64,000 nt of DNA from a virus. The position numbers and the translations under genes are program-made. The stretch lies in the IMG/VR virus record IMGVR_UViG_3300028901_000316; one strand, given 5' to 3'. Below the pieces are notes generated by a model. It searched no databases, was not told the origin of the DNA, and saw nothing but the letters and a program-made list of their open reading frames with translations. Positions 4,860 to 38,588 of this stretch are shown piece by piece; the stretch's first letter is position 1; each line of letters begins with the position of its first letter.

Positions 4860-4861
4860 CT

Positions 4862-5314: not shown

Positions 5315-5318
5315 CTCG

Positions 5319-6167
5319 CTACTCCGGCGCTTTCAGCACCTTGTTGACGCCAGGTTGATGAGGGAACCCGCGGAAGTTCACGCGGTTCGAGAACTTGTCG
5401 CCGCACGTCGAGAAGTTGCCGTCACAGCCCGCGATGATCGTGAAGGTGTCGCCAACCTCGACCGCGAACGGCGTCGCGATCTCGAGGCGGATGTTGCCCG
5501 AGGCGGAGCGCGAATCTTGAACGTCACTCACGATCCCCGCATTCGCGCCCGTCAGCCAGGTGAGCTTGCCCGACGCGAACCACGAGTTGGCGAGCGAGCC
5601 CGACAGGTCGGTCTCGAACTCGAGGCGATCAACCAACACGGTCGCGATCGCGTGCGGCGTGTAGGTGAAGGCCGTCAGGTCCTTCGCACAGCGGGCATCG
5701 CCCAGCACCGCGTCACAGTCGCGCGAGTAGACGCGGCCGACGTTCCGGCTGAGGCGGATCGACAGCCCGTCGATCTGGGCCGCCCAGCTCTCGCCCGTCT
5801 GAACCGTCTCGGTGATCTCGTACTCGGCCCGCTCATACTCGCCCGCCCATGGGTACATCCAGTCGACAACCTGCTCCAGCACCTGTGCGCCGCGATATCG
5901 ACCCGCCGCCAGGTCGTCGTGCGTGATCTTCTCCGAGTCGAGCCCGCCCTTGAACTCGCGGTTCTGGCCGTCAAGTCCTGCCCGCTTCTGCCGTGCCGAG
6001 ATCTCGGCCGCGGCCGGCTCGAACACTTGGCCGTCGACCGTCAGCGGGGCGTCGTGATCGGTAAACCGCAGCACCACCGCGTCGGCGCGCGTGATGGTCC
6101 AGAGCGTGCACGGGCGCATGCAGCCGGACCTGATGAGACTCAACATGGGGCCGCGAAGCTTGAGCAC
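5319..6167 (-). CDS. DUF2163 / BR0599-family tail hub protein
   Basis: CTLWTITRADAVVLRFTDHDAPLTVDG...YSRDCDAVLGDARC...AGCDGNFSTCGDKFSNRVNFRGFPHQPG. Confidence 0.9.
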   Translation of the reverse strand: MLKLRGPMLSLIRSGCMRPCTLWTITRADAVVLRFTDHDAPLTVDGQVFEPAAAEISARQKRAGLDGQNREFKGGLDSEKITHDDLAAGRYRGAQVLEQVVDWMYPWAGEYERAEYEITETVQTGESWAAQIDGLSIRLSRNVGRVYSRDCDAVLGDARCAKDLTAFTYTPHAIATVLVDRLEFETDLSGSLANSWFASGKLTWLTGANAGIVSDVQDSRSASGNIRLEIATPFAVEVGDTFTIIAGCDGNFSTCGDKFSNRVNFRGFPHQPGVNKVLKAPE

Positions 6168-6199
6168 GCCCGATGAGAGCGCGGCCGGAGGGTTGCGCC

Positions 6200-6946
6200 T
6201 TAGCGACGAAGCCCGTCCGTGCCCTCTGGCGGGTCGCAGCAGCCGCGACGCTCCGACCTTGGGTCAAAGTCGCCGGGCACGACCTGGCGGGGCAGCGTGG
6301 CCCTCGGGCGAAGTTCTGGCGAGTCGGCGGGGATCCCCATCGCGATCTCGTGGAGCTTGGTCGCCAGTGCGTTGACGGGTGGACGCCGCTTAATGGGGAC
6401 GAACGGCACCTCGACCGCGTCGGGATTCCAGACCAGCGCCTCGGACAGGTCAAACGCCACCATGGCGTAGACCGCGCAGGGTGTGAGCGTCCAGAACGTG
6501 TCGATCGCGACACCGCCCCACCACTTGGGCACGAGCATCCGCAGCTCGCTCGCCTCTTCGGGCGACTGGATGATCGCCACCACGTCGAGGTCCTTGATGG
6601 GACGCGAGGGTTGCAGGACGGCCGATCCGGTCACGTAAAGGCGAGCAACCGACGCGATTGAGGCGAAGGCCTCGCGCAGCGCCGGCAGTTCGGGCGGCAG
6701 GTAGAGCCGCGTCGCGTCGAGATGCCGCCGGACCTTGATCGGGCTGTAGCGAGTGCCGTGAGCGAGGCGCCGGACCGACCAGTCGATGAAGGGCTGGGTC
6801 ACGACCCCGCCGGTGTGGCGAGGTCCTTGGGCCCGCGGGCACGCGATATCGCAGTCCACCTTCCCGACGCGCGAGACCTCACCCACCACATGGGCCATCG
6901 GGATGCAGGCGCCGCCGGGATCGAGGTGAGGACATTGGTTCGTCAT
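6200..6946 (-). CDS. Putative Pol-beta-superfamily nucleotidyltransferase-domain protein
   Basis: LYVTGSAVLQPSRPIKDLDVVAII fits the hG[GS]-x-DhD signature; ATGA overlap with the upstream gene. Confidence 0.55.
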   Translation of the reverse strand: MTNQCPHLDPGGACIPMAHVVGEVSRVGKVDCDIACPRAQGPRHTGGVVTQPFIDWSVRRLAHGTRYSPIKVRRHLDATRLYLPPELPALREAFASIASVARLYVTGSAVLQPSRPIKDLDVVAIIQSPEEASELRMLVPKWWGGVAIDTFWTLTPCAVYAMVAFDLSEALVWNPDAVEVPFVPIKRRPPVNALATKLHEIAMGIPADSPELRPRATLPRQVVPGDFDPRSERRGCCDPPEGTDGLRR

Positions 6947-7689
6947 GTCGGGCGGTTGCTCCACACAATCGTGATCTCGTCGCACCGCGCCGTCGAGTCG
7001 TAATCGTCGCCGCAGCTCGCGTCGCTCCCGCCCGTGTAGGACCAGGAGAAGGTGTGGCCCGCGCCGTCCGTAAATGTGCCGCCCGTCGCACAGCCGCAAA
7101 GGTCGACGCCGAACACGCTGCGGAACCACTCACAGCTTGCCTGCACCGAGTCGCCGACATAGAGCGAGACGAGGAAGTTCTGCTTCGCGGTGTTGTAACC
7201 CTCGATGCAGGTCGCGAACGCTTCGATTTCGAGGTCGAGGCACGGGATAGCCGAGTCGCATCCGGTCGGCGGGATCTCGTCCGACGTGCAGATCGGTTCG
7301 GTCGTCGCGCTCGAGCCCACCGCCGCGATCGCGTCGCGGGTGCCGCGCGAGTAGGTCCGCCCCGAGCCCGCCGCGCCCGTGTGGTGGATCCACTTGCCGG
7401 CGGCGGTCGAGTTCCGGACGAGCCCGAGTGTCGCGACCGACCCGCCCGCGAGCGAGAACAGCGTCGTGTCCGCCGCATCCTTCACCGCGATCGCATTCGG
7501 CCCCGAGTTGTGGAGCACGTATTGGCCGAAGCCCAGCCCGATCCGGCGGGCGTCGTCGAGCTTCACCGACTTTCCCGAGGTGGCGGCCGACACGTTCCAC
7601 GCGCGAGCAAGCCCGTAGGTCAGCTTGTGGCTGCTCGTCACCGCAAGGTATCGGCCGGCGCCGAGGAATCGTTCGCGCGAGATCGTCAT
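6943..7689 (-). CDS. Putative tail-tip protein with a Cys-rich C-terminus
   Basis: MTISRERFLG...; N-terminal ~100 aa resembles the C-terminal extension of the neighbouring DUF2460 gene; 7 Cys in the C-terminal half. Confidence 0.6.
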   Translation of the reverse strand: MTISRERFLGAGRYLAVTSSHKLTYGLARAWNVSAATSGKSVKLDDARRIGLGFGQYVLHNSGPNAIAVKDAADTTLFSLAGGSVATLGLVRNSTAAGKWIHHTGAAGSGRTYSRGTRDAIAAVGSSATTEPICTSDEIPPTGCDSAIPCLDLEIEAFATCIEGYNTAKQNFLVSLYVGDSVQASCEWFRSVFGVDLCGCATGGTFTDGAGHTFSWSYTGGSDASCGDDYDSTARCDEITIVWSNRPT

Positions 7690-7691
7690 CT

Positions 7692-8669
7692 TCAGCCCTC
7701 GCTCGCGTACACCGTCACCGCCCCGCCACTCGCGAGGCTCGCCCAAACGATCACGACCTTGCCCGCCTGGCAGGTGATCAGCGTCGAGCCGTCGTGTGTC
7801 TTGATGTCGAAGTCATTTGCACCGTCGTTGGCGACCACCAGCATGGGCCAGCCTGTCGGGCCCGTGCTCATGTCCCAGAGCGTTCCCGCCTTCCCGCTCG
7901 CGGTCGCGTTGACGCTCCAGAGCAGGCCATCGAGTGGGTCGAACGTGAAGTTGTCGGCCGTCGCGAGTTCGTACGACCCGCCGTGATTCACATCGCTCGC
8001 GACCTCGAGGCCGTCGATGATCTCCTCCATCGGCAGACTGCTGATCTCGCGCGTGCCGAAGGTTGAGCAGTCGATCGGGTTATTGCGATCGGCCGATTCG
8101 CTGAACCGCACCGGCACATCGAACTGCCCGCCCCAGGTCGGGATCACGCCCACACCCGGCGGCGACGTGAAGGTCAGCAGGCCCGTCGCGGTGTTGACAC
8201 TCCAGCCCGACATCTGCTCGACGCCGTCGAGCCCGATCCGCACCGTGCCGGCCCGCGGCTTCGTGATGTTCCGCACATACGACTGCCCGCCGTTGGTGTA
8301 TCGCTTCACGAGCTGGAACGTGGTCTTGACCCCATCGCCGACGCCCAGTTCCTGATCAAATGGAGTCGCGACCGAGCCGGGCAGTGCGCCGTGATCCGCC
8401 GACGTGAGAAAGTCGGTCCAGTCCTTCAAGCGGAAGCCACGCTCGGCACCACGCCGCGCGAAGTAGAAGCTCAGGATCGCGGCGATCTTGTCCGGAGCCT
8501 TCGCGGTCTCGCGGATGTCGTAACGGTGCACCGCGACCTGCGCGAGCGACGTGCGCTGCTCCGCGCGGTTGGGAGTCCGGATGATCGACGTGTTGAACCC
8601 AGCCCCGAACGTCGAGCCATAGCTCACGCCCTCGGGGAACAGAACTTCATCGAAAGGTCCGCTCGGCAT
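7692..8669 (-). CDS. DUF2460 (TIGR02217) distal tail protein with a C-terminal extension
   Basis: FDEVLFPEGVSYGSTFGAGFNTSI...ARRGAERGFRLKDWTDF...LGVGDGVKTTFQLVKRY...RNITKPRAGTVRI...GGQFDVPVRF. Confidence 0.9.
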   Translation of the reverse strand: MPSGPFDEVLFPEGVSYGSTFGAGFNTSIIRTPNRAEQRTSLAQVAVHRYDIRETAKAPDKIAAILSFYFARRGAERGFRLKDWTDFLTSADHGALPGSVATPFDQELGVGDGVKTTFQLVKRYTNGGQSYVRNITKPRAGTVRIGLDGVEQMSGWSVNTATGLLTFTSPPGVGVIPTWGGQFDVPVRFSESADRNNPIDCSTFGTREISSLPMEEIIDGLEVASDVNHGGSYELATADNFTFDPLDGLLWSVNATASGKAGTLWDMSTGPTGWPMLVVANDGANDFDIKTHDGSTLITCQAGKVVIVWASLASGGAVTVYASEG

Positions 8670-8727
8670 GGCCGATTGGAGCAGCTGGGAGCGGTTGCGC
8701 TTCGGTTACGCCGAGTTTGCGTCCAGT

Positions 8728-9045
8728 TCATGAGACCCCGCCCGCGCACGCAAATAGAACCAGCCACGCCGCCTTGCAAAGGATGTGCAGAAACTGGTCC
8801 TGCCCGAACGTTGTGACACGCCGCACCTTCAGTTCGTCAATCGCCGTGTGGGCCGCGATCTCCGCGAGGCCCATCGCGATCGAGCCGGTAACGAGCGAGA
8901 CCGCTGCCCCGTGGATTGTCGCGTGGCCGACTAGATGCCACAGCCGAAGTGGACCGTCCTGCTTCGCCCGGGACAGGAAATCTCCCTGGAGCGGGTAATC
9001 ACAGACAAAGTGGGCGGCCAGAAGATAGAGCGCAAGGGTCAGCAT
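8728..9045 (-). CDS. DUF3307-family membrane protein
   Basis: LLAAHFVCDYPLQGDFL...HLVGHATIHG...AHTAIDELK...DQFLHILCK. Confidence 0.8.
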   Translation of the reverse strand: MLTLALYLLAAHFVCDYPLQGDFLSRAKQDGPLRLWHLVGHATIHGAAVSLVTGSIAMGLAEIAAHTAIDELKVRRVTTFGQDQFLHILCKAAWLVLFACAGGVS

Positions 9046-9146
9046 GCTGGCATGTTGACATCCATTCAGGTTGCGATGCCAGCATCGCGGTCGATTGCTG
9101 GCATGACGGTGGCCCTCGATGTACCAATGTTCGGTACATCGGTACA
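9045..9146. promoter_or_regulatory. Operator-like repeats in a divergent intergenic region
   Basis: TGCTGGCAT at 9045-9053 and 9096-9104, inverted copy ATGCCAGCA at 9076-9084; GATGTACC...GGTACATC inverted repeat at ~9118-9140. Confidence 0.45.
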
Positions 9147-9318
9147 TTTGGACCTGCAGGCCAGACCCGCCGGCGGCTAGACGCGCCGAAGCTCGTCCCG
9201 ACATGGAGTCGACTTTCGCCGCCGGGCAGGTCCGAAGCCTGCCGAGTCGCCGTTAAACGACTCGGAAGATCCAAGCCTCAATACTGCCGCGAGCATACGC
9301 CAGGCCCTACCTTGCCAC

Positions 9319-9591
9319 ATGGCCAAGCCACCAATCTCGCCAGCGACCTGGGATCGACTCCGCGCTCTGGACTCCAGTTGCGACTTCAGGTTGCTGCGCC
9401 GCTCAACCGAGCCCAAGCCCGGAGAATCGTTCACGAGCAGTCGAAACTACCCGCGCATGTGGGTGGTAGAGATTTGGATCCAGTCCGACGAACGAAAGCG
9501 GCTCCGAATCGACGGCCCTGACCTCGCCGGCACACTTGAGACGGCGATCGAACGAGCAGAGCAACTGCTGCAGGGCCCGTGGAAGGCTTAG
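9319..9591 (+). CDS. Hypothetical protein (90 aa), one of the few plus-strand genes
   Basis: Natural-looking composition (MAKPPISPATWDRLRAL...WVVEIWIQ...ETAIERAEQLL); no minus-strand gene competes for the space. Confidence 0.6.
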   Translation: MAKPPISPATWDRLRALDSSCDFRLLRRSTEPKPGESFTSSRNYPRMWVVEIWIQSDERKRLRIDGPDLAGTLETAIERAEQLLQGPWKA

Positions 9592-9622
9592 TCCTTCTGG
9601 ACGGTGAGAAACGCATAAGCCG

Positions 9623-9832
9623 TCATGCGCCGTCAACTCGAAGAGGCATTCCCGCGGCGGCAAAGATCCGCACCGCGGTTTCCAGCGTGACATCCTTTTT
9701 TCCCGCAAGCCAGTTCGAGACGTTCGGCGCCGGGCATTTCGCTTCCCGCGCCAGCGCCGCGATGCTGATGCCGTGTTCGTCCATGTGGGCACGGAGAGCG
9801 GCCCGGAGATCGTTTGAGGTTGTTGCAGTCAA
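9623..9832 (-). CDS. XRE-family helix-turn-helix protein
   Basis: LRAHMDEHGISIAALAREAKCPAPNVSNWLAGKKDVTLETAVRI. Confidence 0.85.
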   Translation of the reverse strand: MTATTSNDLRAALRAHMDEHGISIAALAREAKCPAPNVSNWLAGKKDVTLETAVRIFAAAGMPLRVDGA

Positions 9833-10146
9833 GAGGATCCTCCCAAGAGTGCACGCAGAAGTCGTTTCCCGCCGACCGATGTTCCGACACCAAAAAGGCC
9901 AGGGTGTCGTTTGCGCAGCATCGCGACCAGTTCAGTCGCGTAGCCCATTCGTCGATGCCGATCAACCACGGTGACGTACTCAAGCACGGGTCCAAATGGC
10001 TTGGGGACGTCCCAGACCGTCGCATGGGCCACCGGATACGGCGCGTCAATGTCGTTCGCGCACGCCAAGTAGACAAGTCGGCTGCCGTGGCTATGGCGCG
10101 GGCTCGGCACCAGGCGATATCTCCATACGCGCAGACGCGGTGTCAA
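9829..10146 (-). CDS. Small GNAT-like acetyltransferase (start uncertain)
   Basis: LEYVTVVDRHRRMGYATELVAML matches the acetyl-CoA-binding motif A; TTGA overlap with the HTH gene. Confidence 0.55.
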   Translation of the reverse strand: MTPRLRVWRYRLVPSPRHSHGSRLVYLACANDIDAPYPVAHATVWDVPKPFGPVLEYVTVVDRHRRMGYATELVAMLRKRHPGLFGVGTSVGGKRLLRALLGGSS

Positions 10147-10774
10147 CGCGATCGGACGCGATGGCGGGCGACCTCGACTCGTTGACTTTCTGCGCATCCG
10201 CACGATCCTCCTGACGCAACATCCACCGCAGACGACCGACAGCACCGACGCTGATGTGCAGCAGATACGCCACGTGGGCCCGCGGGAGATCTCCGACAAG
10301 GATCTCACGCACGCCGGGAACGCGATACCAGCCGGCGTCGCGACACCGCTTGCCCACATAGGCAAGCATGGCCCGCTCGACCGCGCTGTGCTTTCGATTG
10401 TGCCGAGAGGCGAACTCCTCGATCGTCATGGTCGAGAGGTCGTCGAGCCTCGCCTGCCACCACGCGTCGGCGTCCGAGTATCGGTTATGACCAAGAAGGC
10501 GGCGCAGTCGCTTGATCGCGCCCCGGCCGATCGGCAGTTGCCAGACCGCGGCATCGCGCCGGTGGCGCTCAAGATAGTCCACGAGCGGGCGCGTCGGGAT
10601 CACGCGCGGACCGCCATATCCCTTGCCGCGAGCGCCCGCAGGCCAACCAAGCAGCACCTCAAAGCCATGGGCGGTCGGGCGTGCCTCACGCACATCCCAC
10701 GCGTCATCCCACGCGTCGTTCGCCGATCCGATGATGGTTGCGACACGCGCCAAAACCGACACGCCCGCTTTCAC
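10091..10774 (-). CDS. Conserved-looking hypothetical protein, possibly HTH-containing
   Basis: WDVREARPTAHGFEVLLGWP...GGPRVIPT...LPIGRGAIKRLRRLLGHN...WWQARLDDLSTMTIEEFA. Confidence 0.65.
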   Translation of the reverse strand: MKAGVSVLARVATIIGSANDAWDDAWDVREARPTAHGFEVLLGWPAGARGKGYGGPRVIPTRPLVDYLERHRRDAAVWQLPIGRGAIKRLRRLLGHNRYSDADAWWQARLDDLSTMTIEEFASRHNRKHSAVERAMLAYVGKRCRDAGWYRVPGVREILVGDLPRAHVAYLLHISVGAVGRLRWMLRQEDRADAQKVNESRSPAIASDRVDTASARMEISPGAEPAP

Positions 10775-10822
10775 GGGCGCACCGGACGCCCCGCCGCCCG
10801 CGGGCGACGACGGGGCAGGGAA

Positions 10823-11041
10823 TCAGGACATGACAGCGGTTTCGATCCGGGTGACCACTGCTTTCATGGCGCGGTTCTTGTTGCCGGTCGTGCCCAATCG
10901 CTGATTCAGGATTCGCTCCGCACCCTTGTAAGTGAGCTTGCGGTCGTGAACGAGAGTTGTCGTCTGTTCGTACCGCATGGGCTGCGAGCCAGAGCCGGCA
11001 GGAATGGTGTACGTCACGGTGTTGGCAATCTTCATGTTCAA
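10823..11041 (-). CDS. Hypothetical protein (72 aa)
   Basis: ATG start with AAAGGGA upstream; first gene after a promoter-like site. Confidence 0.55.
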   Translation of the reverse strand: MNMKIANTVTYTIPAGSGSQPMRYEQTTTLVHDRKLTYKGAERILNQRLGTTGNKNRAMKAVVTRIETAVMS

Positions 11042-11104
11042 TCCCTTTGCGTCCCCACGCTGCTCTCCGCGTGGCCGAGTGTCGGGCTCGTGCCTGACCC
11101 CTAT

Positions 11105-11132
11105 ACCATAGCATATCGGCTATCGTTGTCAA
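11105..11132 (-). promoter_or_regulatory. Sigma70-like promoter driving the small-gene cluster
   Basis: TTGACA-16 nt-TATGGT with a TG extension, in an AT-rich patch. Confidence 0.55.
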
Positions 11133-11207
11133 TGGATTTAGTTGCGAAACGTGAAAAAACATGCCTAAACGCGTCGGGCACGCCCCAAGTCGATCCTAAA
11201 ACGAGGT

Positions 11208-11927
11208 TTAGGCCGGAATTGCGGCCTCTGTGACGTTTCCGGCCAGCACGCGCCAATAGGGCGGCGTCACCGGCGCCTCACACGTCTTCTCGATCGCGAG
11301 ACCGTGGTTGCGTGCAAACTCGACCGGAAGATTTCTCGCCGGCTGACCGTCGCTGGTCTTCCAGTCGGAAGTAAACGAATCGATGGGATCAGGAAGCGTC
11401 TCGATCTTCATCTCGACAACGCGACCAAAGCCCTGCGACGCCTTCTTTCCGATGTGGGTGATGTGCTTGGCGAGGCGGTTCACGTTCTTCCGGAAACCGA
11501 CCGCGTAGAACACCAGCTCGGGCATCCACACGGTTTCGAGCCGACCCATCGTTTCCTTGAACCGACCCATCGTGAGCGGCACCTGCGTCGCCTTGCCCAT
11601 ATCGAGCATGTCCTCATGCTGGTGCTCGAACTTCTTGGACCAAAACTGCTGCGACGAGACGCCGAGCGGAACGACAGCGGACGCACGGAACCACCACGCC
11701 GACCCGTGCCTCATTCGGAGCAGCGGGAGCGTCACGCACTCGCACGGCTCCTGTCCCGCATCAAGCTCTGCGGTCGTGGACGGCTGGCGATGGATCTTGA
11801 CCCACGAAAGAAGCGAGTCGAAATGGATCGGGCCGCCGGAGAACACGACCGGAGCGGCCATCGTGAAGGTGATCCGCATCGGAACGGGCTTGGGAGAGTC
11901 GCCTACTCGGAGATCTTGGTGATCCAC
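11208..11927 (-). CDS. csf3: Type IV CRISPR Csf3 (Cas5-like)
   Basis: MRITFTMAAPVV...PIHFDSLL...LPL...WWFRAS...GRFKETMGRL...LVFYAVG...HITHIGKKASQGFGRV (G-rich loop)...RNLPV...PPYW; GGAGG RBS. Confidence 0.85.
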   Translation of the reverse strand: MDHQDLRVGDSPKPVPMRITFTMAAPVVFSGGPIHFDSLLSWVKIHRQPSTTAELDAGQEPCECVTLPLLRMRHGSAWWFRASAVVPLGVSSQQFWSKKFEHQHEDMLDMGKATQVPLTMGRFKETMGRLETVWMPELVFYAVGFRKNVNRLAKHITHIGKKASQGFGRVVEMKIETLPDPIDSFTSDWKTSDGQPARNLPVEFARNHGLAIEKTCEAPVTPPYWRVLAGNVTEAAIPA

Positions 11928-12775
11928 GCGGCCACCTCCTTCGCGTTGCTGGTCATGTAGGAGCGGTAGAGGTCCGTGCTGGGCAGCTGGCTCAAATCGA
12001 TTTCCGCCCGCACCCGTCCCATCCCGACCTGCAGCATGCCGCCCAGTCGCGGGTCCTCAAGCCACGACTCCACCGCGTCCCGAAGGCACGCCGCTTCGAG
12101 TTCGGTCGCGCGGCGGAGCCAGAACCCACCGACGAGCTGAGTGCCGGGGTTGAGGATCTCGGTCTCGTAGATCATCTGCACCGAATCGTCGCTGGCCGAC
12201 TGGTCGGCTGGCTTGGCGTGAGGATCGGACACCGATTGGTCCCGCCGCGTCGCCATGTTGGTGCTCAACAGTGCGTGAGCGGGCGTTTCAGACGGGACTC
12301 CGGTGATGATCGCCGTCTCGGCGCATACCGGTATGATCTGGTCCACGCTCAGCGACCCCGGCGTGATCGCTCCGTGCAACACACCGCCAAGCAGACCGAT
12401 CGCCGGCACGGCCGATCGGATCTCTCGCAGCAGGGTCACGCGGTGCGCGTGGTGCATGTCGCCCTTGTTGAGCGCGCCGCCCGAGAACAGCGTGTGGTAG
12501 ACGGGCAACGGAACTTGGGCGAGCCCGACCAGCTCCAAGGTGCGCCTGGCGATGATCCGCCGCAGCTGACCCCGCAGAGAATTTCCGGTGACGATCGGGA
12601 CTTCGACCGGCTGACCGTTGTGCATTACGGTCATGCGGCGGTACATCTTCTGATTGCCGGCGTTCTCGTCAGAAGAGTGACTTAGGGGCGCGACCGCCGT
12701 CATCCGCAACAGCAAATGGGTCGTCGTCCTGTTTTTTGTCTGCTGCCCGTCCACGACGCTTTGGGGTTGTGCCAT
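11903..12775 (-). CDS. csf2: Type IV CRISPR Csf2 (Cas7-like backbone)
   Basis: MTAVAPLSHS...VPIVTGNSLRGQLRR...TLFSGGAL...IGLLGG...GSLSV...IPVCAET...TRRD...QMIYETEILNPGT...LGGMLQVGMGRV; GAGGAG RBS. Confidence 0.9.
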   Translation of the reverse strand: MAQPQSVVDGQQTKNRTTTHLLLRMTAVAPLSHSSDENAGNQKMYRRMTVMHNGQPVEVPIVTGNSLRGQLRRIIARRTLELVGLAQVPLPVYHTLFSGGALNKGDMHHAHRVTLLREIRSAVPAIGLLGGVLHGAITPGSLSVDQIIPVCAETAIITGVPSETPAHALLSTNMATRRDQSVSDPHAKPADQSASDDSVQMIYETEILNPGTQLVGGFWLRRATELEAACLRDAVESWLEDPRLGGMLQVGMGRVRAEIDLSQLPSTDLYRSYMTSNAKEVAAWITKISE

Positions 12776-13175
12776 CGGCACGCTCCTCACGGGCGCGTCT
12801 GCGTTCGTCCGAGATTGCTCTCACGACCGAGACCACAAGTCCCGGCTGCCGACGAACACACCGCACCGCTTCCTGATTTTCAATGTGCGACATCGTCCTC
12901 GCCTCTGCGATCAGCGACTTGTCGATGAGTTGGGGGCTGACATGACACTTGGTCGCCAGCCTGAAGATCCACGAGATCGTGTCGGGCTCGTTGCCGGTCG
13001 CGCGGATTCGAGTCTCGAACCGCTGCCACACTCCCGCGCCGGCGGTCCGCCAGAGGGCTCCGTCGAAGTCGATGAGCCTCCACACGTTCACGGCCAGCAG
13101 GGCCGCGACCGATTCGGCCTTCGAAAGGCCAAGTTCCGCGAGCAGCGCCCGATCCGCTTCGCCGATGACCGACAT
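12669..13175 (-). CDS. cas11: Type IV-B Cas11-like small subunit
   Basis: 168 aa all-helical protein (AVNVWRLIDF...WQRFETRIRA...WIFRLATK) in the canonical position between csf1 and csf2. Confidence 0.65.
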   Translation of the reverse strand: MSVIGEADRALLAELGLSKAESVAALLAVNVWRLIDFDGALWRTAGAGVWQRFETRIRATGNEPDTISWIFRLATKCHVSPQLIDKSLIAEARTMSHIENQEAVRCVRRQPGLVVSVVRAISDERRRAREERADGTTPKRRGRAADKKQDDDPFAVADDGGRAPKSLF

Positions 13176-13185
13176 GACGACGCTC

Positions 13186-13851
13186 CTACCGCTTGGGTTC
13201 GATCGCGATCCCCAGCCGCTTCGCCAGCTCGACCGCGACCTCTTTGTTTGGGATGATCGGGACCATGATGCCAAACAGCGTTGTGCCCCGGGCGAGTTGC
13301 GCAAGCGCGTCAAGCCCGCGGATGTGCACAATCCCAGTCCGCTGGTAGTCGCCCGAGTCGTAGCGCCCGGACAGAATCGACTCGCGCGAGCAGCCGCGGA
13401 GGTAAAGCTCAAGGGCCGCACGCATCCAAGCCTCGTCCCGACGTCGCGAGAAGTCGGCGCTCAGCTGTTCGCACTGGACACGCCAGAAATCGCGCGACTG
13501 GGCCACGCGCTGGCGAAAGACGCCGTGCTTCTGAAACGAATGGCTCAGAAACAGGACGAACGGCGGTTCGGGCGGAAACAGCACGGTCTCCCACGCGTCG
13601 GGGATCTTGAGCGGCGCAAAGCCGCCGGCCGACACCACAAAGGCGCTGCGGGTGCGCCGGTCCGCCAAACACGCCTCGCACGCCCAACAGACGCGGTCTG
13701 AGTGCAGTTCGTCGAGGTTGGTGAACGTGTCCTTGAGCACCTTCGCGGCGGGCCTTGCCGGTTCGAGCGCACCGCAGAGGCCGCACGCGGCTCTTTCTCC
13801 ATCGTGGGGGCTGGCTCCCAGCGCCTTGGCGGTCATGACGGTCGCGCTCAT
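13186..13851 (-). CDS. csf1: Type IV CRISPR Csf1 (Cas8-like, Zn-binding)
   Basis: ACGLCG...KDTFTNLDEL...VCWACEAC...PPEPPFVLFLSHSFQKH; ATGA overlap with cysH-like gene. Confidence 0.85.
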   Translation of the reverse strand: MSATVMTAKALGASPHDGERAACGLCGALEPARPAAKVLKDTFTNLDELHSDRVCWACEACLADRRTRSAFVVSAGGFAPLKIPDAWETVLFPPEPPFVLFLSHSFQKHGVFRQRVAQSRDFWRVQCEQLSADFSRRRDEAWMRAALELYLRGCSRESILSGRYDSGDYQRTGIVHIRGLDALAQLARGTTLFGIMVPIIPNKEVAVELAKRLGIAIEPKR

Positions 13852-14609
13852 GCGTGCTCCGCAATTTGGGGGAACTCTCGCTTCATCCGCGCGAAGTATT
13901 CCGGGAAGTGGTGCTTGAGCCACGCGACGCGGCCCGAACGCGCCGCCCCGTCTGTCGTGGTCCACCCCGCGTTCCGGATTGTCTCGCGCGTCTGCCCATG
14001 CGTCTCCAAGTCGTACAGCGGCAGGTAGGGAAGGCCATTCACCGCGATGCAGGCCCAGACGTCGCGGGCCGACCAGTCGAGGAGCGGGAGGCACCGCGTC
14101 ACCCCGTCCGAATGCGGGTAGATCGCCCCCCGGGCTCTCGCGTTCATCGCGCGGGCGCCGGACTCGGCACCGCGAAGGCCCAGCGCCATCACGCCGAATC
14201 CTCGCTCGATCGCGTACGCCGTGCCCTTCGACTTCTTCAGCGACTGCACCACGGCCGCCTGTTGCGAAGCGGTCCGCTCGTGTCCGAGCCCGACTTCGTG
14301 CGTCCAGGCCAGCCGTTCCTCGATCGTCGCCATCGGAGTGCGAAAGACGCTGACGCGCATGTGCTCGGCGCACCACGCCTCAATCTCGTCGGTCCCCGGC
14401 ATGGCGGCTGGGGACGGCATGTGCAAAACCTCGGTCAGCCCGGCCCGGGCCGCGAGGTAGACCAGCACGACCGAATCCTTGCCCCAGGACGATGAGACGA
14501 GCACGCGGCCGAGCGACGCGGCCTCGGCCAGTCGTTCGGATGCACGTTCGACCGCCACCGCGTAGGCGCGGGTGCGGGCGTGGATTCTGTACTGAAGCAG
14601 AGAGGACAC
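13848..14609 (-). CDS. cysH: CysH/PAPS-reductase-like protein (type IV-B accessory)
   Basis: VLVSSSWGKDSVVL (PP-loop), LGLRGAESGAR, LPLLDWSARDVWACIAVNGLPYLPLYD; no C-terminal ECG motif. Confidence 0.85.
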   Translation of the reverse strand: MSSLLQYRIHARTRAYAVAVERASERLAEAASLGRVLVSSSWGKDSVVLVYLAARAGLTEVLHMPSPAAMPGTDEIEAWCAEHMRVSVFRTPMATIEERLAWTHEVGLGHERTASQQAAVVQSLKKSKGTAYAIERGFGVMALGLRGAESGARAMNARARGAIYPHSDGVTRCLPLLDWSARDVWACIAVNGLPYLPLYDLETHGQTRETIRNAGWTTTDGAARSGRVAWLKHHFPEYFARMKREFPQIAEHA

Positions 14610-14665
14610 GTCTCAGCGAAGACTTTCGGTCCGGTTGCGCCCCGCGATCGCGACGAGCTGGGATA

Positions 14666-17600
14666 TCAGCCCCGCAGCCCGCGCTGGATCTGCCCGGCGA
14701 CTTGGCGCCCGCTGCGGCGGAATGCGTCGGCGGAATCTCGCGTCGCCCCACGGGCATCGACGCTCACGTTGACGCTGTAGTGGTTGACCGTGCCCCCGCC
14801 ACCAATCGCACGCACGCCGAGATCCCCGTTGGGCAACCGGACCGGCTTGGCCACCATCTCGTCCCGACCGGCCTCGCCCACAACCCCGACGCGCCCGTTG
14901 TTCAGCGGGAAGATGGCCGCACTGCTGTAGATGCCTTGGTCTAGTCCGCCGCGTGCAAACGGGACGAGCGAGCCGGCGAGGATCATGTTTCCGTGCGCGT
15001 TGAACAGCGCGCTGCTCGGAATGCCCGCAGTGGGGTCCCCGCCCGCACTCGGACCAGCGCCCGGAGCCGCCGCGCCCCCCACCACCGCGCCCGCGAGTGG
15101 CATGAAAACGTTGGCCAGGCCGCGGGCGAGCGGTTGAATCGCGGCATACTGCAGGAAAGTCTGCAAGACCTGCTTCCCGGTGTCGTTCAGCGCCTTCATC
15201 GCGTTGTCCCAGGTCAGCGTCGAGTCGGTCAGGCGAGAGAACACGCCCGCGACGTCCGAGCCCAGCGCGTCCGCCATGTTGCGCGTCTCGCGCATCCGCT
15301 GAAGCGACGCCACCTGGGCCTCGACGATGCGTCCGGTTGCGTCAGCCTGTTTGTCGCTCTGGCCAGCCGCCATCGCGGCCTCGACGGCGCGGTAGGCGGC
15401 CGCACGCCGCTCCTGGGCGTCCGCGTCGAGCCCGGCAAGTTCAATCTCCTCGTCAAGGTCCCGCATCATCCGCGTCAGGTTCTCTGCAGCGGCAAGCTGG
15501 GACGCCTGCAATGCCTCGTCGGCCCGCGCGGCCTCTTCGGTCGCGGCCGTCACGTCGGCCAGCTCGGTCTTCATCTGGGCGAGAAGCTGAGTCCGCTCGA
15601 TGTATTGCGTGAGGAGGTCGAAGCCGGCAAACGTGCCCTCCTCCTCCGCGAGCTTGGTCGCCTCGATCTGCGCGATGTAGAGCGTGCGTTCCTCGGCGCC
15701 CATCCGGAGGGTGTCGATCTCCAAGTTGGTCTTGTCGATCAGGTCTTGGAGCTTCTGGCCCGCCTTGTCGGAGGCCTCCACCATGCGCTCAAGTGAACGC
15801 TCATACTCCTGGTTGGCTTTGGCCGCCTCTTGAGTCGCGTCCTTCGCCGCCTGAAGCTGGGCGGCCTGATCCACCACCTTGGTCACCATGTCGCCCAACG
15901 CGGCCTTCTGGGCGTCGGTCATGTCCTTCTCAAGCTCGCGGCGCATCGTCAGGGCCTGCAGCGCCGACGCGCTCATGCCCGCCGCCTTCTCCTCGTCCTG
16001 CATCGCGGTCAGGAGCGATTGGAGTTTCGCCCGCTGGGCCTCGATATCGGCGCCGGTGCCCTGCCGCACCTGGCCCGTCTCCTGCATCTTCTGCTTCAGG
16101 GCCTCGAGGGCTTGGATTTCGGCAATAGCGGCAGCTTTGAATTGGTCGGAAGGAACATAAGCGTTCAACAAAGCGCCCGTCGCGCCTGGGGCAGTCGCGA
16201 CCGTATCCTCGAACGTTCGTCCATTCAGCTTGCCGTTAGAGCCTTCGTACGACAGCGCATTGAACGCCGCGCGACCCTGCGGGGTCTGAATGAGGCGTTT
16301 CACGTCCTGTGCAGTCACGCCGGACATCGCCGTACCGGTCGCATCCGAGATCTTCGACCCGTCGGCGTTAAGCATGTCAAGCGTGTTCTTGATCGCCGCC
16401 AGACGCTGCTCCAAAGATGCCGCCGCCAGACTTGGGTCCTTCAGCATGGTTGCTGACTTTTGCTTCGCTTCAGCGTCCGCAAGAGCCGCCGCGATCGGCG
16501 CGAACGACTCTGCCGCTGCCTTCTGTCGCTCGATCGCCTCCGTCGCCGCGTTGGTGTTCTCGCGGAGCGACACCATCACGCCAATGACCGCCGCCGCGCC
16601 AACAAGAAGCAGTCCCCACGGATTCGACAATGTTGCAAGTCGCATAACGCCCAGTGCTCCTGTCACACCCTGAATCGCGCGGGTGATACCGAGTAGCGTA
16701 CTCACAACCTGAACGGCCGCAAGAGCTGTTAGGGCAGAAGTAACACCCATGATGGTCGCCTGAAGTGCCGGAGACTCGGTCGAAAGGCCCCGGATCGCGT
16801 CCAAAAGGCCTTTCATGACGAACGTCGCGGGCTTCACCGCACCGTCCGCCATCAGGCCGATAACGTTCTTCGCCATCTGGGACTTGGCCGCCAGGGTCTC
16901 GAATGCCTTCGCGGATTCGGCATTCAGCGCCTGTTGCCGCTCCCCCTCCTCGCGAGCTTTCTGGATCGAGACCGCGAGTTCGCCATACGCGCCTCCCAGC
17001 GTCGGCAGCACGCGCTGGATTCGGATGTCCTCAAGCCCGAGTGCCTCCAACACACCCTTCACGTCCTCGCCAGCGCGGCCCGCCGCGTTCAGTCCGCCGA
17101 TGAACCTCGCAAACTGCGCGGTCGGATCCGTGCGGAACAGATTCTCGATCTCGTCGGCCGTCTGGCCGGTCAGCTTCTGCAAGACCTGCATCTGCGGGCC
17201 TGGCTTGCGGATCGCCTTGTCGATCACGTCCATCGTGCGTCCGACCGACGTGCCGCCAACTTCGGCGTCGTTGCCGAGTGACTTCATCGCCGCGCCAAGC
17301 GCGAGCGCGTTGACCGACCCGATCCGATACTGCGCGGTCGCCTGCGCGACCGTCTCGGCGTTGCCCAGGATCTCCGACTCGCTCGCCCGCGACTCGTTGC
17401 CCAGACGCGTGATCGCGGCACCCACGGCCGTGATACTCGTCCCGACGTCCTCGCCGTTGATTCCGATCAGTCGAGCGAGCTTCTTGGCCCCGTCACCGCC
17501 CTGAATGTCCGTCGCGGCCTGGAGCTTCGCCACCGTCTCGGTGAACCTCGCCAGGTCGGCTGACCCACGCACACCGAGCTGGCCGGCCGCCTGCCCGATG

Positions 17601-18232
17601 TTGAGCAGCTCGACCGTCGCGACCGGCGTGCGCGCCGACAACTCGTCGATACGGCGCTTGTAGTCCTCGAGCGCAGCTCCGCTCAGGTTGGTCGTTTTCG
17701 CGACCCCGACCAGCGCGGTTTCGAGCTGGGCCGTGTTGGCGACCGCGGTCCTGGCCCCCATCGCGATCGAGAGTCCACCGGCCAATGCCGCGATGGTGCT
17801 GAGCATTCCGCGCAGTGAACTCGCCGCCTCGTTGTTGCGACGCGTGGACCGCTCCGTCTCGTTCCCGACATTCCGCTGCGCCTGCGCCAGCTCGACCATG
17901 CGGGTCACGGCCTGCGCCGTCACGGCGTTGTGGCGCGTCTGAACCTCAACCGCCTGAGCGACTCGTGCGACCTCCTCCGCGACCGCCTGAGCATGGTTCC
18001 GCGTCTCGGTGCGCAGTCGCTCGATTTGAGTCACCGCCTGAGCCGCCACGCGGGTGGCCCGCTCCTGCCCCGCCGCCATGCGGTTGAAGCCCGCCTCGGC
18101 GGCGCGGATCTGTCGATCGGCCAACACCACGGCCTGTTCTGCCTTGAGGCACGCGATCGTGAACGCGTCGGCCGCGCTGATCGCCTGCGAGTTGTCGATC
18201 TTCAGAATCAGTGATTCGGTTTCAGTCGCCAT
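14666..18232 (-). CDS. Tail tape measure protein
   Basis: 1188 aa, Ala-rich and helical; TP901-like core (ETALVGVAKTT...LARFTETVAKL...GTSVGR), hydrophobic segment, C-terminal FARGG...GVVGEAG...V...NG.LGV. Confidence 0.95.
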   Translation of the reverse strand: MATETESLILKIDNSQAISAADAFTIACLKAEQAVVLADRQIRAAEAGFNRMAAGQERATRVAAQAVTQIERLRTETRNHAQAVAEEVARVAQAVEVQTRHNAVTAQAVTRMVELAQAQRNVGNETERSTRRNNEAASSLRGMLSTIAALAGGLSIAMGARTAVANTAQLETALVGVAKTTNLSGAALEDYKRRIDELSARTPVATVELLNIGQAAGQLGVRGSADLARFTETVAKLQAATDIQGGDGAKKLARLIGINGEDVGTSITAVGAAITRLGNESRASESEILGNAETVAQATAQYRIGSVNALALGAAMKSLGNDAEVGGTSVGRTMDVIDKAIRKPGPQMQVLQKLTGQTADEIENLFRTDPTAQFARFIGGLNAAGRAGEDVKGVLEALGLEDIRIQRVLPTLGGAYGELAVSIQKAREEGERQQALNAESAKAFETLAAKSQMAKNVIGLMADGAVKPATFVMKGLLDAIRGLSTESPALQATIMGVTSALTALAAVQVVSTLLGITRAIQGVTGALGVMRLATLSNPWGLLLVGAAAVIGVMVSLRENTNAATEAIERQKAAAESFAPIAAALADAEAKQKSATMLKDPSLAAASLEQRLAAIKNTLDMLNADGSKISDATGTAMSGVTAQDVKRLIQTPQGRAAFNALSYEGSNGKLNGRTFEDTVATAPGATGALLNAYVPSDQFKAAAIAEIQALEALKQKMQETGQVRQGTGADIEAQRAKLQSLLTAMQDEEKAAGMSASALQALTMRRELEKDMTDAQKAALGDMVTKVVDQAAQLQAAKDATQEAAKANQEYERSLERMVEASDKAGQKLQDLIDKTNLEIDTLRMGAEERTLYIAQIEATKLAEEEGTFAGFDLLTQYIERTQLLAQMKTELADVTAATEEAARADEALQASQLAAAENLTRMMRDLDEEIELAGLDADAQERRAAAYRAVEAAMAAGQSDKQADATGRIVEAQVASLQRMRETRNMADALGSDVAGVFSRLTDSTLTWDNAMKALNDTGKQVLQTFLQYAAIQPLARGLANVFMPLAGAVVGGAAAPGAGPSAGGDPTAGIPSSALFNAHGNMILAGSLVPFARGGLDQGIYSSAAIFPLNNGRVGVVGEAGRDEMVAKPVRLPNGDLGVRAIGGGGTVNHYSVNVSVDARGATRDSADAFRRSGRQVAGQIQRGLRG

Positions 18233-18557
18233 CCTCAGCCTCCTCGGGCTTGAATGCCAACAGGTCCTGATCGAGCGCGAGCACGATCTCGGTCCAGTCC
18301 TCCCGCTGATCGGGATGGCGGATCTGCCTCAGGTTGAGATATGACTCAATGTCCCTGACGCAGATGGGGTTGGCCGCCATCCCGACCGCACGTTGCCGAC
18401 TCAGCTCGGTGAAGGCTCGCCAGACCCGCATCTCCTCTGGGCCAATCTCTGGCCGGTCCGGCACACCTTCAAGCTTCCAGCCGAGCCGGCGAAGCTCTTC
18501 AAACTGGGACGCGTACTTGCCCCACCTCAGGTCCCAGCTGAGGCGGGCACGGAGTTT
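18222..18557 (-). CDS. Tail assembly chaperone, -1 frameshift (GT) extension
   Basis: Open -1 frame from the slippery site: KLRARLSWDLRWGKY...VWRAFTELSRQRAVGMAANPICVRDIESY...IVLALDQ. Confidence 0.75.
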   Translation of the reverse strand, partial: KLRARLSWDLRWGKYASQFEELRRLGWKLEGVPDRPEIGPEEMRVWRAFTELSRQRAVGMAANPICVRDIESYLNLRQIRHPDQREDWTEIVLALDQDLLAFKPEEAEDGD

Positions 18558-19009
18558 CCCTTCGTGGCCTCAACCTGTTCATGCCGGAAATGCTCGCGTC
18601 CCGACGAGGCGACGAGAATGAACGTCCGCAGGTCCGGACATTCGCTGATGAGCCTGCGAGAGTTCTCCACGCTGTACTCGATCGGCTTTCCGTCGTCGTC
18701 GAGGAAGGCCGGCTCGCGGTCGTCCTTGCTCATTCCGCCAGGCCGGACGGGACCGCGCCAGCCGAGCAGGATCGTCTCCGAAATGACCTTGTCCCTCGCG
18801 TCGTTGAACTTTTGATTGACAAGCACGTCCTCAACTTCCGGCTTGCTCTTGGCGATGCCGGCTGCCTGCATGCTCGCATACATGGCGGCGTTATAGCGAT
18901 AGTTGTTGAGCCGGGCGATAAGCAACTCGACACCGCTCTCGAACGGCACCCACGCGCCGTTGAGTTCCTTGGACTTGTCGGTACGCAGCGAACTGAGCTT
19001 GATGGACAT
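18527..19009 (-). CDS. Tail assembly chaperone (G)
   Basis: LRTDKSKELNGAWV...LLIARLNN...ETILLGWRG...IEYSVENSRRLI; lies between tail tube and TMP. Confidence 0.8.
   Translation of the reverse strand: MSIKLSSLRTDKSKELNGAWVPFESGVELLIARLNNYRYNAAMYASMQAAGIAKSKPEVEDVLVNQKFNDARDKVISETILLGWRGPVRPGGMSKDDREPAFLDDDGKPIEYSVENSRRLISECPDLRTFILVASSGREHFRHEQVEATKGNSVPASAGT
18554..18560 (-). promoter_or_regulatory. Programmed -1 ribosomal frameshift site G GGA AAC
   Basis: X XXY YYZ heptamer in the correct phase (codons AAG GGA AAC); the -1 frame runs without a stop into the 18222-18464 ORF. Confidence 0.8.
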
Positions 19010-19125
19010 TCTTGAACCTCCGACGCGGCCCGCGCGGCATGCCCGGGCTCGCAAAACACCCGACCGGGTTTCCCCGATCGAGCGTGTGGTGCTCTGGTCA
19101 GATTGGAATCAAGACCAACGCGACA

Positions 19126-20553
19126 TCATGCGGGAAATCGCGCGATCCGGATCGTCTTCTTCTCCCCCTCGTGCATGAAGGCGCCCAACTTCATGTCGGG
19201 CTTGATGGGCGTGTTCTTGCCGCCAGCCGCGCGACTGCCGTCGGTGAACTTGGCACGCGGGATATCGATGACGTACTGGCTGCCCGATGCGTCGATGAGC
19301 CGCGCGTTGAAGTTGGTCTTGGTGTTGTTGAGGAACTTGTCGTACAGCGTCTTCGACGCGTAGTAGGCCGTGAAGCTGCCCTCGACCGCGATGTCGCCCT
19401 GGGTGTGCCCAGTCGCGCCGAGCGTGCCAGCCTCCGGCTCGTCCGCGATCTTGTTCGAGATATCGAGGTTCAGGCCGATGAACCCGAGCGCGTTGCCGCC
19501 CTCACGCGCCCCGCTGACGTTGTCGATGGCGTTCAGGATCGAGCCCGCGGGAGCCAGTAGAAGTCGACTGCCTGCCGTCGCGGTCGCGCTGACCTCGCGG
19601 GTGCCCATCAGATCGGTCGAGCCCGTGATCTTGTTCCCCGCCTCGACCTTCAGCGAGAGCTTGCTCACCTCGCAGTTGTCGAAGGTAGCGAAATCGTTGG
19701 ACAGATCGGTGTACTCACGCTCGGCCAGCAGCACGTTGGGCGTGACGCCGTTCTCGATGTAGGCACCCTGCGTAACCGTCACGGACACACCAGCGACATT
19801 GTCGACCATCGTGGCTTCGGAAACGATGATCTTGCCCGTCGTGACCGACACGATCTTGGCGAGGCCGTTGTATCCCGCACCGGCGAAGCCCGAGATCTTG
19901 ATCCACTGGTACGGCTTGAATCCCGCCGCCACGAAGTCTCCGCCGGCGGTGTTGATCGAGTTGTCACTCGCCGCCTGGCTGATGTCGGTCGCGGTCAACT
20001 TCGCCGCGGCGTTCCAGCCGGGCTCCTGGTAGATCGTGACTGCTTCGCCCGCCGCATCTGTGATGCCGATGCTGTCGATGCCGCCAAGGACCATCGCGGT
20101 CGCCTGCAGGTCATTGATGTAGGCCCAGCCCGAGACACCGCCGCCGGTGAAGCCCGACACGTAGATGCGTGCACCGAGCTTGAAACCGTCGCTGACGTAC
20201 GAGCCAGACGCACGCGAGAGCGTCTTGGTCGAGGCATTCCACGAGTGCACCGTGCCGGTGACCGACACCTCCGCGATGTTGCTGGTCGCACGCAGGACCG
20301 CCGCCATGTAGATGTCTTGCGCGCCGAACGAGAGTTCAAAGGGGATGCCGCCGCCCGCGCTCATGTTGACGCGAATGTGGTCGGTCACCTGACCGTCCGT
20401 GCGGATCTCGTCCGACTCCTGATTCTGCTGGTTGGGCTTGAGCGTCTCGCTCGTGAATCGCTGTTCAAGCAGCGGACCGCTGAACGCCGCGCCGAACGCG
20501 GACTTGCGGCCGATCGACAGTCGGGCGCGGCTGGAACTTGCACGAGTGGGCAT
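19126..20553 (-). CDS. Major tail tube protein (Phage_tube_2-like)
   Basis: EQRFTSETLK...SDEIRTDGQV...AGGGIPFELS...GDIAVEGSFTAYY...YVIDIPRAKFT. Confidence 0.85.
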   Translation of the reverse strand: MPTRASSSRARLSIGRKSAFGAAFSGPLLEQRFTSETLKPNQQNQESDEIRTDGQVTDHIRVNMSAGGGIPFELSFGAQDIYMAAVLRATSNIAEVSVTGTVHSWNASTKTLSRASGSYVSDGFKLGARIYVSGFTGGGVSGWAYINDLQATAMVLGGIDSIGITDAAGEAVTIYQEPGWNAAAKLTATDISQAASDNSINTAGGDFVAAGFKPYQWIKISGFAGAGYNGLAKIVSVTTGKIIVSEATMVDNVAGVSVTVTQGAYIENGVTPNVLLAEREYTDLSNDFATFDNCEVSKLSLKVEAGNKITGSTDLMGTREVSATATAGSRLLLAPAGSILNAIDNVSGAREGGNALGFIGLNLDISNKIADEPEAGTLGATGHTQGDIAVEGSFTAYYASKTLYDKFLNNTKTNFNARLIDASGSQYVIDIPRAKFTDGSRAAGGKNTPIKPDMKLGAFMHEGEKKTIRIARFPA

Positions 20554-20566
20554 GGTGAAACCTCCG

Positions 20567-20980: not shown

Positions 20981-21019
20981 CGGTGGGTGCCGGACCCTAC
21001 CGATCAAGACCAGTTGCGC

Positions 21020-21499: not shown

Positions 21500-21502
21500 G
21501 CG

Positions 21503-22398: not shown

Positions 22399-22412
22399 CG
22401 TGCGCCTCCAAT

Positions 22413-22480
22413 CGCAGGCCCGGGATTCGAACCCGGCGATGTCGGGATATGAGTCCGACGCGAGCCCAAGCCCGCCTGCT
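22413..22480 (-). tRNA. tRNA-like element (fMet-like, CAT anticodon, shrunken D arm), probably a pseudo-tRNA
   Basis: GCAGGC/GCCTGC acceptor; GGGC-TTGG-GCTC mini D arm; GTCGG-ACTCATATC-CCGAC; T arm CCGGG-TTCGAAT-CCCGG; no CCA. Confidence 0.7.
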
Positions 22481-23324: not shown

Positions 23325-23382
23325 GCGAATCTCCAAATGGGGTGAAGACAACCCCGCCACGTTTCCGCGACGGGGTGTTGAA

Positions 23383-38326: not shown

Positions 38327-38328
38327 AC

Positions 38329-38583: not shown

Positions 38584-38588
38584 GCCTT

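Follow-up and report, generated by a model that had tools for sequence, protein, structure and literature searches.

What use can a phage make of a CRISPR-Cas effector complex when it carries no CRISPR array to guide it? This question is raised by five minus-strand genes at 11208-14609 of the stretch of DNA analysed here (the window), which comprises 64,000 nucleotides (nt) of the IMG/VR virus record IMGVR_UViG_3300028901_000316 and covers all but 2.7 kb of this single-sequence record of 66,725 bp. The five genes are almost certainly a bona fide, intact and array-less effector module of subtype IV-B, arranged in the order cysH-like, csf1, cas11, csf2 and csf3. As a whole, the locus is on balance best explained as a mobile IV-B cassette, expressed late in phage growth, whose products would form an RNA-bound filament and an ATP-using enzyme. 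The genes of the cassette are the following:

13848-14609, minus strand: cysH-like gene (CasCysH), 253 amino acids (aa), with a GTG start 56 nt past the stop of the tape-measure gene
13186-13851, minus strand: csf1 (Cas8-like large subunit), 221 aa, with an ATG start
12669-13175, minus strand: cas11 (small subunit), 168 aa, with an acidic C-terminal tail overlapping the csf2 start
11903-12775, minus strand: csf2 (Cas7 backbone subunit), 290 aa from the ATG at 12775, with the ribosome-binding site GAGGAG
11208-11879, minus strand: csf3 (Cas5), 223 aa from the ATG at 11879

These open reading frames (ORFs) are tightly coupled, as had been claimed when the letters alone were inspected (hereafter, the sequence-only reading), and all the motifs quoted on that occasion were found in the translations. 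The stop codon of the cysH-like gene and the ATG of csf1 form an ATGA overlap, which was read directly; csf1 and cas11 are separated by 10 nt, with GGAG ahead of the cas11 ATG, and the likely csf2 start (the ATG at 12775) lies inside the 3' end of cas11. Alternative starts exist for csf2 at 12790 (GTG) and 12703 (the start in public gene calls), and for csf3 at the GTG at 11927. The stretch that encodes the acidic low-complexity tail of Cas11 (12669-12775) is also read, in another frame, as the first 35 or so codons of csf2, the overlap being about 107 nt in the window and about 113 nt (near 9926-10038) in the related locus L002. The Cas11 tails of relatives finish in short hydrophobic motifs, for example LPLF or PDVF.

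The assignment to subtype IV-B is carried by the proteins, every one of which matches type IV or PAPS_reduct profiles or solved structures. Csf2 matches the PADLOC profile typeIV_Cas7 (E 7.3e-62), TIGR03115 (E 6.2e-20) and the solved type IV-B Csf2 of PDB 7JHY (E 1.6e-19). Csf3 matches PADLOC Csf3_0_IV (E 1.6e-42), TIGR03116 (E 1.2e-25) and the solved type IV-A Csf3 chains 8RC3_F (E 9.3e-9) and 7XFZ_B (E 2.3e-6). Csf1 matches PADLOC Csf1_0_IV (E 1.3e-25) and NCBIfam TIGR03114 (E 4.6e-11, 42.8 bits with a curated cut-off of 140); compared by sequence with solved structures, it gave no match. Cas11 matches PADLOC Cas11_1_IV (E 1e-5), its gene is syntenic with 104 cas11 ORFs of related loci, and a profile built from 31 syntenic Cas11 homologues matches the Cas11 chain of PDB 7JHY (E 7.9e-7). 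The CysH-like protein matches Pfam PF01507 (PAPS_reduct) with an E of 2.5e-13 and 50.9 bits (gathering cut-off 22.5). The profile search for Csf1, Csf2, Csf3 and Cas11 that the sequence-only reading had proposed was thus answered with a match for all four, and the contrary outcome, an absence of Cas5, Cas7 and Cas8 profile matches, did not arise. The features that define membership in IV-B are present together: the Csf1 zinc finger, Csf2, Csf3, a Cas11 between csf1 and csf2, and an adjacent PP-loop CysH-like gene.

Residue conservation was assessed over 105-126 homologues per protein. Csf1 (119 homologues) keeps the zinc-finger cysteines C23, C26, C55 and C58 and the K108-H109 motif, Csf2 and Csf3 retain nearly all strongly conserved positions, and Cas11 retains most of them. 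The study of the IV-B complex of Mycobacterium sp. JS623 placed a putative catalytic Asp in a loop of Csf2 (PMC7937560); the window Csf2 has the acidic residues D36 and E37 in this loop, where the catalytic position itself is not reliably aligned.

The fifth protein calls for separate consideration. The 105 CysH-like ORFs located beside csf genes share the strongly conserved positions S41, G43, K44, D45, S46, G144, R146, E149, S150, R153, P175, D183 and Y199, and the window protein keeps all of them, the first five residues forming the PP-loop S41-x-G43-K44-D45-S46. An AlphaFold2 model (pLDDT 87.3, pTM 0.87) has as its best Foldseek matches, at template-modelling (TM) scores of 0.5-0.6, TtuA (a PP-loop tRNA thiolase), phosphoadenosine phosphosulfate (PAPS) and adenosine phosphosulfate (APS) reductases, and, from FAD synthase, the domain that resembles PAPS reductase. 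The modelled fold is that of an adenine-nucleotide alpha-hydrolase, in which the PP-loop would bind ATP. With the PAPS/APS reductases (PDB 1SUR, 2O8V, 6VPU) and TtuA (PDB 5B4F) the protein shares this fold, the PP-loop and the G144/R146/E149/S150/R153 motif; however, the TM scores are only 0.5-0.6 and the identity is 16-22%, the PP-loop has the form S-x-G-K-D-S as in ATP pyrophosphatases, and the C-terminal catalytic cysteine of the reductases is missing. In reductases this cysteine sits in an ECGLH-type motif. The translation of the window protein has no cysteine past Y199 (residues 200-253), which excludes the thiol chemistry of true PAPS reductases, and the NCBIfam cysH models score it at 20-30 bits against cut-offs of 154-254. 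A role as a true sulfonucleotide (PAPS/APS) reductase was rejected on the absence of the C-terminal cysteine. The protein agrees with the published description of CasCysH, which lacks the reductase cysteine and for which ATP alpha-hydrolase or AMPylation activity has been proposed (PMC8175902).

The other half of the question is the missing guide. No array-like tandem or spaced repeats, no tRNA and no Rfam family were detected in the 64-kb window, and no array-like repeats or mini-array in the whole 66,725-bp record. A six-frame family search of the record gave no Cas6 (PF01881, PF10040) and no Cas1 (PF01867); for csf4/DinG (TIGR03117), the only match reached 10.8 bits and is read as chance. 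No helicase or nuclease partner was seen in the record, where DinG was searched and no search was aimed specifically at RecD. A guide RNA in cis was sought as a noncoding tract common to the cassette flanks in relatives, and none was found. The statement of the sequence-only reading that the array, Cas6, Cas1 and DinG are lacking therefore holds across the 66.7-kb provirus, and the cognate array or cas6 that might have lain just beyond the window is not in the provirus record, which is the extent of that search, the host chromosome lying outside it.

The same composition is known from other carriers. Published descriptions of subtype IV-B with cysH cover plasmids and "sometimes prophages" (PMC7038947) as well as an archaeal virus (PMC10848311), and reviews treat it too (PMC8175902, PMC11656645). 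In our searches, relatives of Csf2 occurred on 74 plasmids, mostly of Rhodococcus and Mycobacterium (identity up to 34%), in 47 GTDB genomes and in 72 IMG/VR contigs; the latter were reached by an alignment-based search, while a single-protein Csf2 scan of IMG/VR gave no match. A library of 1.84 billion proteins yielded 1082 cluster representatives at E up to 1e-3. Virus-borne and prophage-borne IV-B is already published and is common in IMG/VR, and the novelty of the locus was overrated when it was first noticed. Among isolated phages, a single-protein search found Csf2 only in Skermania phage SPI1 (L001, KR011061.1). At 4810-8443 of this genome, Orf40-43, annotated as hypothetical, match csf1, cas11, csf2 and csf3 (PADLOC E 1.9e-28 to 1.2e-66), and Orf44 is matched by an iterated hidden Markov model (HMM) of CysH; this unannotated IV-B cassette of a cultured phage lies upstream of genes for ribonucleotide reductase, lysin and holin.

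The closest structurally solved system is that of the Mycobacterium sp. JS623 megaplasmid (PDB 7JHY; PMC7937560), which has the same five components and equally lacks an array, Cas6, helicase and adaptation genes. The window differs from it in the carrier, a provirus instead of a megaplasmid, and from JS623 and the actinobacterial plasmid loci in that its Csf2 is only ~32-34% identical and falls into a separate clade; besides, cysH is first and co-directional here, whereas it is divergent upstream in Rhodococcus and Streptomyces loci. The virus-borne systems (Fuxivirus of Bathyarchaeia, PMC10848311; SPI1; the IMG/VR contigs) share csf1-cas11-csf2-csf3 plus a CysH-like gene and are mostly arrayless. 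Csf2 of SPI1 and of the IMG/VR viral systems is at most 36% identical to that of the window, their gene order is csf1-cas11-csf2-csf3-cysH or csf1-cas11-csf2-cysH-csf3 in contrast to the cysH-first order here, and Fuxivirus has a mini-array while the window record has none. These two orders are also the usual ones in the fetched loci as read with iterated HMMs (34 and 24 loci, respectively). A few loci have a true array beside them; the majority of these are without cas11 or cysH and resemble other type IV subtypes. Type IV-A (PDB 8RC3, 7XFZ), which comprises Cas6/Csf5, DinG and an array, has homologous Csf3 and Csf2, but the record lacks DinG, Cas6 and an array and has Cas11 and CysH-like genes instead. 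Membership in type IV-A was rejected on the 10.8-bit TIGR03117 score and on the missing PF01881, PF10040 and array.

An effector complex of this kind, without its own guides, may be suspected to take up those of others. The sequence-only reading had suggested sequestration of crRNAs, action on guides from host arrays, or targeting of a modifying enzyme, and all three are published hypotheses (PMC7038947, PMC8175902). One possibility is that it acts as a sponge, soaking up host CRISPR RNAs (crRNAs) or other small guides and blunting RNA-guided defence, with the CysH-like protein being accessory or unrelated. This suggestion is in print (PMC7038947, PMC8175902), and it agrees with the lack of an array and Cas6 in the record, with the heterogeneous RNA bound by the JS623 complex (PMC7937560), and with carriage by a phage, which fits counter-defence. 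However, it gives no role to a near-invariantly linked CysH-like gene with an intact active site, few of the JS623-bound RNAs derived from the co-expressed CRISPR array (PMC7937560), and the authors of PMC7038947 themselves judged an anti-CRISPR of such complexity unlikely; we consider it improbable. Alternatively, the complex may load crRNAs of the host or of co-resident elements and turn them against rival plasmids or phages, as all the Cascade-like subunits are present and conserved and type IV-A acts against plasmids (PMC7038947). Such borrowing is very doubtful: IV-B loci are mostly found where there is no other CRISPR system (PMC8175902), JS623 Csf proteins did not load co-expressed type I-E crRNAs (PMC7937560), and the record has neither a repeat-like unit nor a helicase or nuclease for action on a target. 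Both readings are weakened by the conserved enzyme that they leave unexplained and by the published counter-evidence, and we prefer the explanation by a filament and an ATP-using enzyme, which assigns a function to the cysH-like gene.

The distribution of close relatives indicates how the cassette reached its present position. In a tree of 121 Csf2 sequences, the window Csf2 groups with those of the loci L002, L003 and L004 (support 100/71), apart from the actinobacterial clade of SPI1, Rhodococcus and Streptomyces. Seven further loci (L182-L188), added by the exhaustive search and with Csf2 at 38-47% identity, were assigned by identity and stand outside the tree. Together they represent a distinct Csf2 subclade at 38-49% identity, comprising 11 fetched loci, mostly in phage-like DNA. 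The cysH-like gene is first and co-directional in seven of the eight subclade loci that are readable upstream (the window, L002, L004, L182, L183, L187 and L188). The eighth, L003, has no adjacent cysH and carries PAPS-reductase-like genes ~3 kb upstream. On this phage-like JGI contig (5182-8336), the csf genes lie ~0.6-3 kb downstream of two PAPS-reductase-family genes, one of which has DUF3440, with a ParB_N gene separating them (an IbrA/IbrB-like pair). In a BLAST comparison with the window protein, the first alone proved CysH-like (35% over 117 aa). Outside the subclade, L014 also has a co-directional cysH match upstream of csf1, in addition to the usual downstream one.

When the window is compared with L002, L003 and L004, the only clear homologues are the five cassette genes, to which L002 adds a weak integrase match. 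Since only the cassette is common to these elements, the five genes behave as a mobile unit that moves between unrelated phages. The places of arrival deserve note: in four subclade loci (the window, L002, L182 and L183), the cassette is co-directional with structural genes and no more than 60 nt away from them. It begins 9 nt after a GpJ-like tail gene in L002, lies between the terminase genes TerS and TerL in L182 (a 65-kb phage contig, 7469-13682), where the csf3 stop is 2 nt before the TerL start, and stands directly upstream of the TerS gene in L183.

These data bear on whether the cassette is a decaying relic, a non-functional remnant that is carried passively. The lack of an array, nuclease and helicase, in a subtype without a known function, would agree with decay. 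Yet none of the five ORFs is broken and all show translational coupling, few of the family's highly conserved residues have been lost, and phages of unrelated background carry the five-gene unit in at least seven loci, at 38-49% identity; such passive carriage is hardly credible, and we retain the interpretation of a functional, mobile cassette.

The surroundings of the cassette in the window are as follows:

14666-18232, minus strand: tape-measure gene of the tail, bordering the cassette on its upstream side (matches to PHROG tape-measure families, the best at E 1.4e-45)
11105-11132, minus strand: sigma-70-like promoter (TTGACA, 16 nt, TATGGT, with TG; a consensus match only)
8728-11041, minus strand: the rest of the insert, with a 72-aa gene, a 227-aa gene, a weak GNAT-like ORF, a helix-turn-helix (HTH) gene and a DUF3307 gene (Pfam)
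9623-9832, minus strand: the XRE-type HTH gene (Pfam)
8728-9204, minus strand: the DUF3307 membrane protein (Pfam)
7692-8669, minus strand: distal-tail gene (DUF2460-like, phrog_2913), downstream of the insert

Of the named relatives, the circular 56-kb siphovirus MW202657 is the nearest; its distal-tail gene (49221-50198) follows 3 nt after the tape-measure gene (50201-55471). The protein of 7692-8669 is 32% identical (E 6e-47) to the distal-tail protein of this virus, and the C-termini of the tape-measure proteins align. In the window, the two genes are ~6 kb apart (8670-14665), being separated by the Cas cassette and then by the small-gene group. As they are adjacent in MW202657, the cassette is part of a ~6-kb insert between the tape-measure and distal-tail genes. 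The small-gene group (8728-11041) was also considered as a part of the system and was rejected, as none of its genes stands beside the cassette in L002-L005.

A scan of 8400-15200 for sigma-70-type consensus sites (shuffled sequences give a mean of 0.8 sites) found no promoter-like site upstream of cysH. The only site is that at 11105-11132, just past csf3, which faces the small genes and not the Cas genes. No convincing terminator was found between the cassette and the downstream tail genes. The 56-nt spacing from the tape-measure gene, the lack of an own promoter or terminator and the distal-tail genes downstream make it most likely that the cassette is co-transcribed with the late tail operon in lytic growth, which we hold as probable with a fair margin for error.

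A different timing is conceivable, in which the cassette is a moron expressed in lysogeny from an unrecognised promoter and protects the lysogen against superinfection or plasmids, in the manner of a prophage-borne defence island. The phage is temperate, the insert looks like accessory cargo in a tail operon, and the neighbouring small-gene group comes with an HTH regulator and a sigma-70-like promoter of its own. We regard expression in lysogeny as unlikely, given that no promoter-like site precedes cysH and that the positions in L182 (between TerS and TerL, 2 nt before the latter) and L183 (before TerS) tie the cassette to late transcripts; late expression, with the tail operon, is therefore the reading that we follow below.

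The carrier itself is a temperate tailed siphovirus. In IMG/VR the record is classed as a provirus, and its completeness according to CheckV is 100%; it carries a tyrosine integrase gene together with complete head, tail and packaging modules, so that the word "prophage" used in the sequence-only reading is apt. The integrase, which is 29.5% identical to that of L002, is located as follows:

2-1729, minus strand: tyrosine integrase (PF00589, E 2.1e-10), extending beyond the left edge of the window

The head, packaging and tail genes encode TerL, portal, head morphogenesis, scaffold, major capsid, tail terminator and minor tail proteins and a tape measure of 1188 aa, and the tail tip is of the type of gene transfer agents and phiJL001, with a DUF2460-like distal-tail protein, a hub (Gp84_N and BR0599), NlpC/P60, a host-specificity protein and DUF2793. 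Other cargo includes a HerA-like ATPase and three DNA methyltransferases (two N6/N4 and one C5, at 38589-39884, 47311-49530 and 51027-51944), which suggests extensive self-modification against restriction. A 904-aa ORF in the terminase-portal interval (28404-31118) has no PHROG or Pfam match.

Left of the integrase, outside the window (record 1-2405), a DUF2924 gene and a large serine recombinase gene are found. The pair recurs in seven related metagenome loci, immediately behind a HARE-HTH gene and in some cases with an N6/N4 methylase nearby; here, the HARE-HTH and N6/N4 methylase genes are ~38 kb away from it (37814-39884). This separation could result from rearrangement, or the pair could be a second mobile module at the edge of the provirus.

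The record comes from a wastewater bioreactor, and near-identical DNA is present in bioreactor, wastewater and activated-sludge metagenomes of five studies; among isolated phages, no close DNA relatives of the record were found. In the wastewater runs X5, X6, X7 and X9, labelled RNA-Seq, fragments are spread evenly over the structural genes and the cassette (4001-24000). In some contigs of the runs, variants that look synonymous cluster in the tape-measure and distal-tail genes, which indicates that close strain variants circulate.

The host had been suggested to be a planctomycete, and this was not established. Portal and capsid are similar to those of Gram-negative siphophages: the portal is ~33% identical to portals of Pseudomonas, Xanthomonas and Stenotrophomonas siphophages, and for the capsid the identity is 54% with an uncultured spring siphovirus and 43% with Vibrio phages. 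The tail module is similar to those of alphaproteobacterial phages, and the tail host-specificity protein matches mainly Caulobacter, Rhodobacter, Brevundimonas and roseobacter phages (~27-31% identity), and the nearest Atlas clusters of the integrase belong to Verrucomicrobiota, Acidobacteriota and Planctomycetota, with very few labelled members. These signals conflict; all are weak and none is decisive. The collection of isolated phages probably holds few if any from planctomycetes, so that it cannot settle the host. If the host lies outside the phyla with documented IV-B, the known range of the subtype widens slightly.

How might the cassette work? By homology with the JS623 Csf complex, which forms an RNA-bound filament (PMC7937560), Csf2 and Cas11 may polymerise into a Cascade/Csm-like filament on RNA that does not derive from a CRISPR array, with Csf3 and Csf1 placed at one end. 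The fold and the conserved residues suggest that the CysH-like enzyme would use bound ATP to adenylate a substrate at or near the filament, or to modify it in another way; this substrate would most plausibly be nucleic acid. Judging from the position of the cassette, the proteins would be made alongside the late gene products, and the benefit to the phage would lie in conflict with host defences or rival mobile elements rather than in adaptive immunity. As a specific mechanism, the combination of filament and CysH-like modification, drawn from the JS623 structure and residue conservation, is put forward tentatively.

Several points weigh against this explanation. In their NCBIfam scores, Csf1, Csf2 and Csf3 fall far short of the curated equivalog cut-offs, so that they count as divergent members rather than near copies of the seed systems, and the support for Cas11 from its single sequence is weak (E 1e-5). 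The promoter scan used a sigma-70-type consensus only, which may not be that of the host, and the cassette may still possess a promoter of its own. The placement beside structural genes is not general either, for the L003 cassette is located among replication and repair genes and that of L004 after a ParB-like gene. The wastewater runs labelled as RNA are probably DNA, covering the whole region evenly; as the cassette and the structural genes are covered alike, we draw no conclusion on expression from them. Finally, the bound RNA, the substrate of CysH and any contact of CysH with the complex are unsettled for every IV-B system, and as of late 2026 IV-B stood alone among CRISPR-Cas subtypes in that its function and the full architecture of its complex were still considered unclear (PMC13676074).

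What the locus adds is modest: a distinct cysH-first subclade, the mobility of the five genes as a unit, and their placement in structural (late) operons. One may go further and suppose that the cysH-first subclade is a phage-specific, late form of IV-B, made together with packaging and tail proteins, in which the RNA-bound filament positions the CysH-like enzyme for adenylating or modifying nucleic acid late in infection. We give this supposition a small chance. The target would then be phage DNA or RNA awaiting packaging, or else RNA of the host. If this is true, the system would be a counter-defence or modification machine and not an immune system, and its location in structural operons would be functional rather than accidental. 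Another phage-borne copy by itself leaves the question of IV-B function unanswered. The subclade, however, with its mobility as a unit, its cysH-led operon and its wiring into structural operons, offers a concrete and cheap experimental handle on it.

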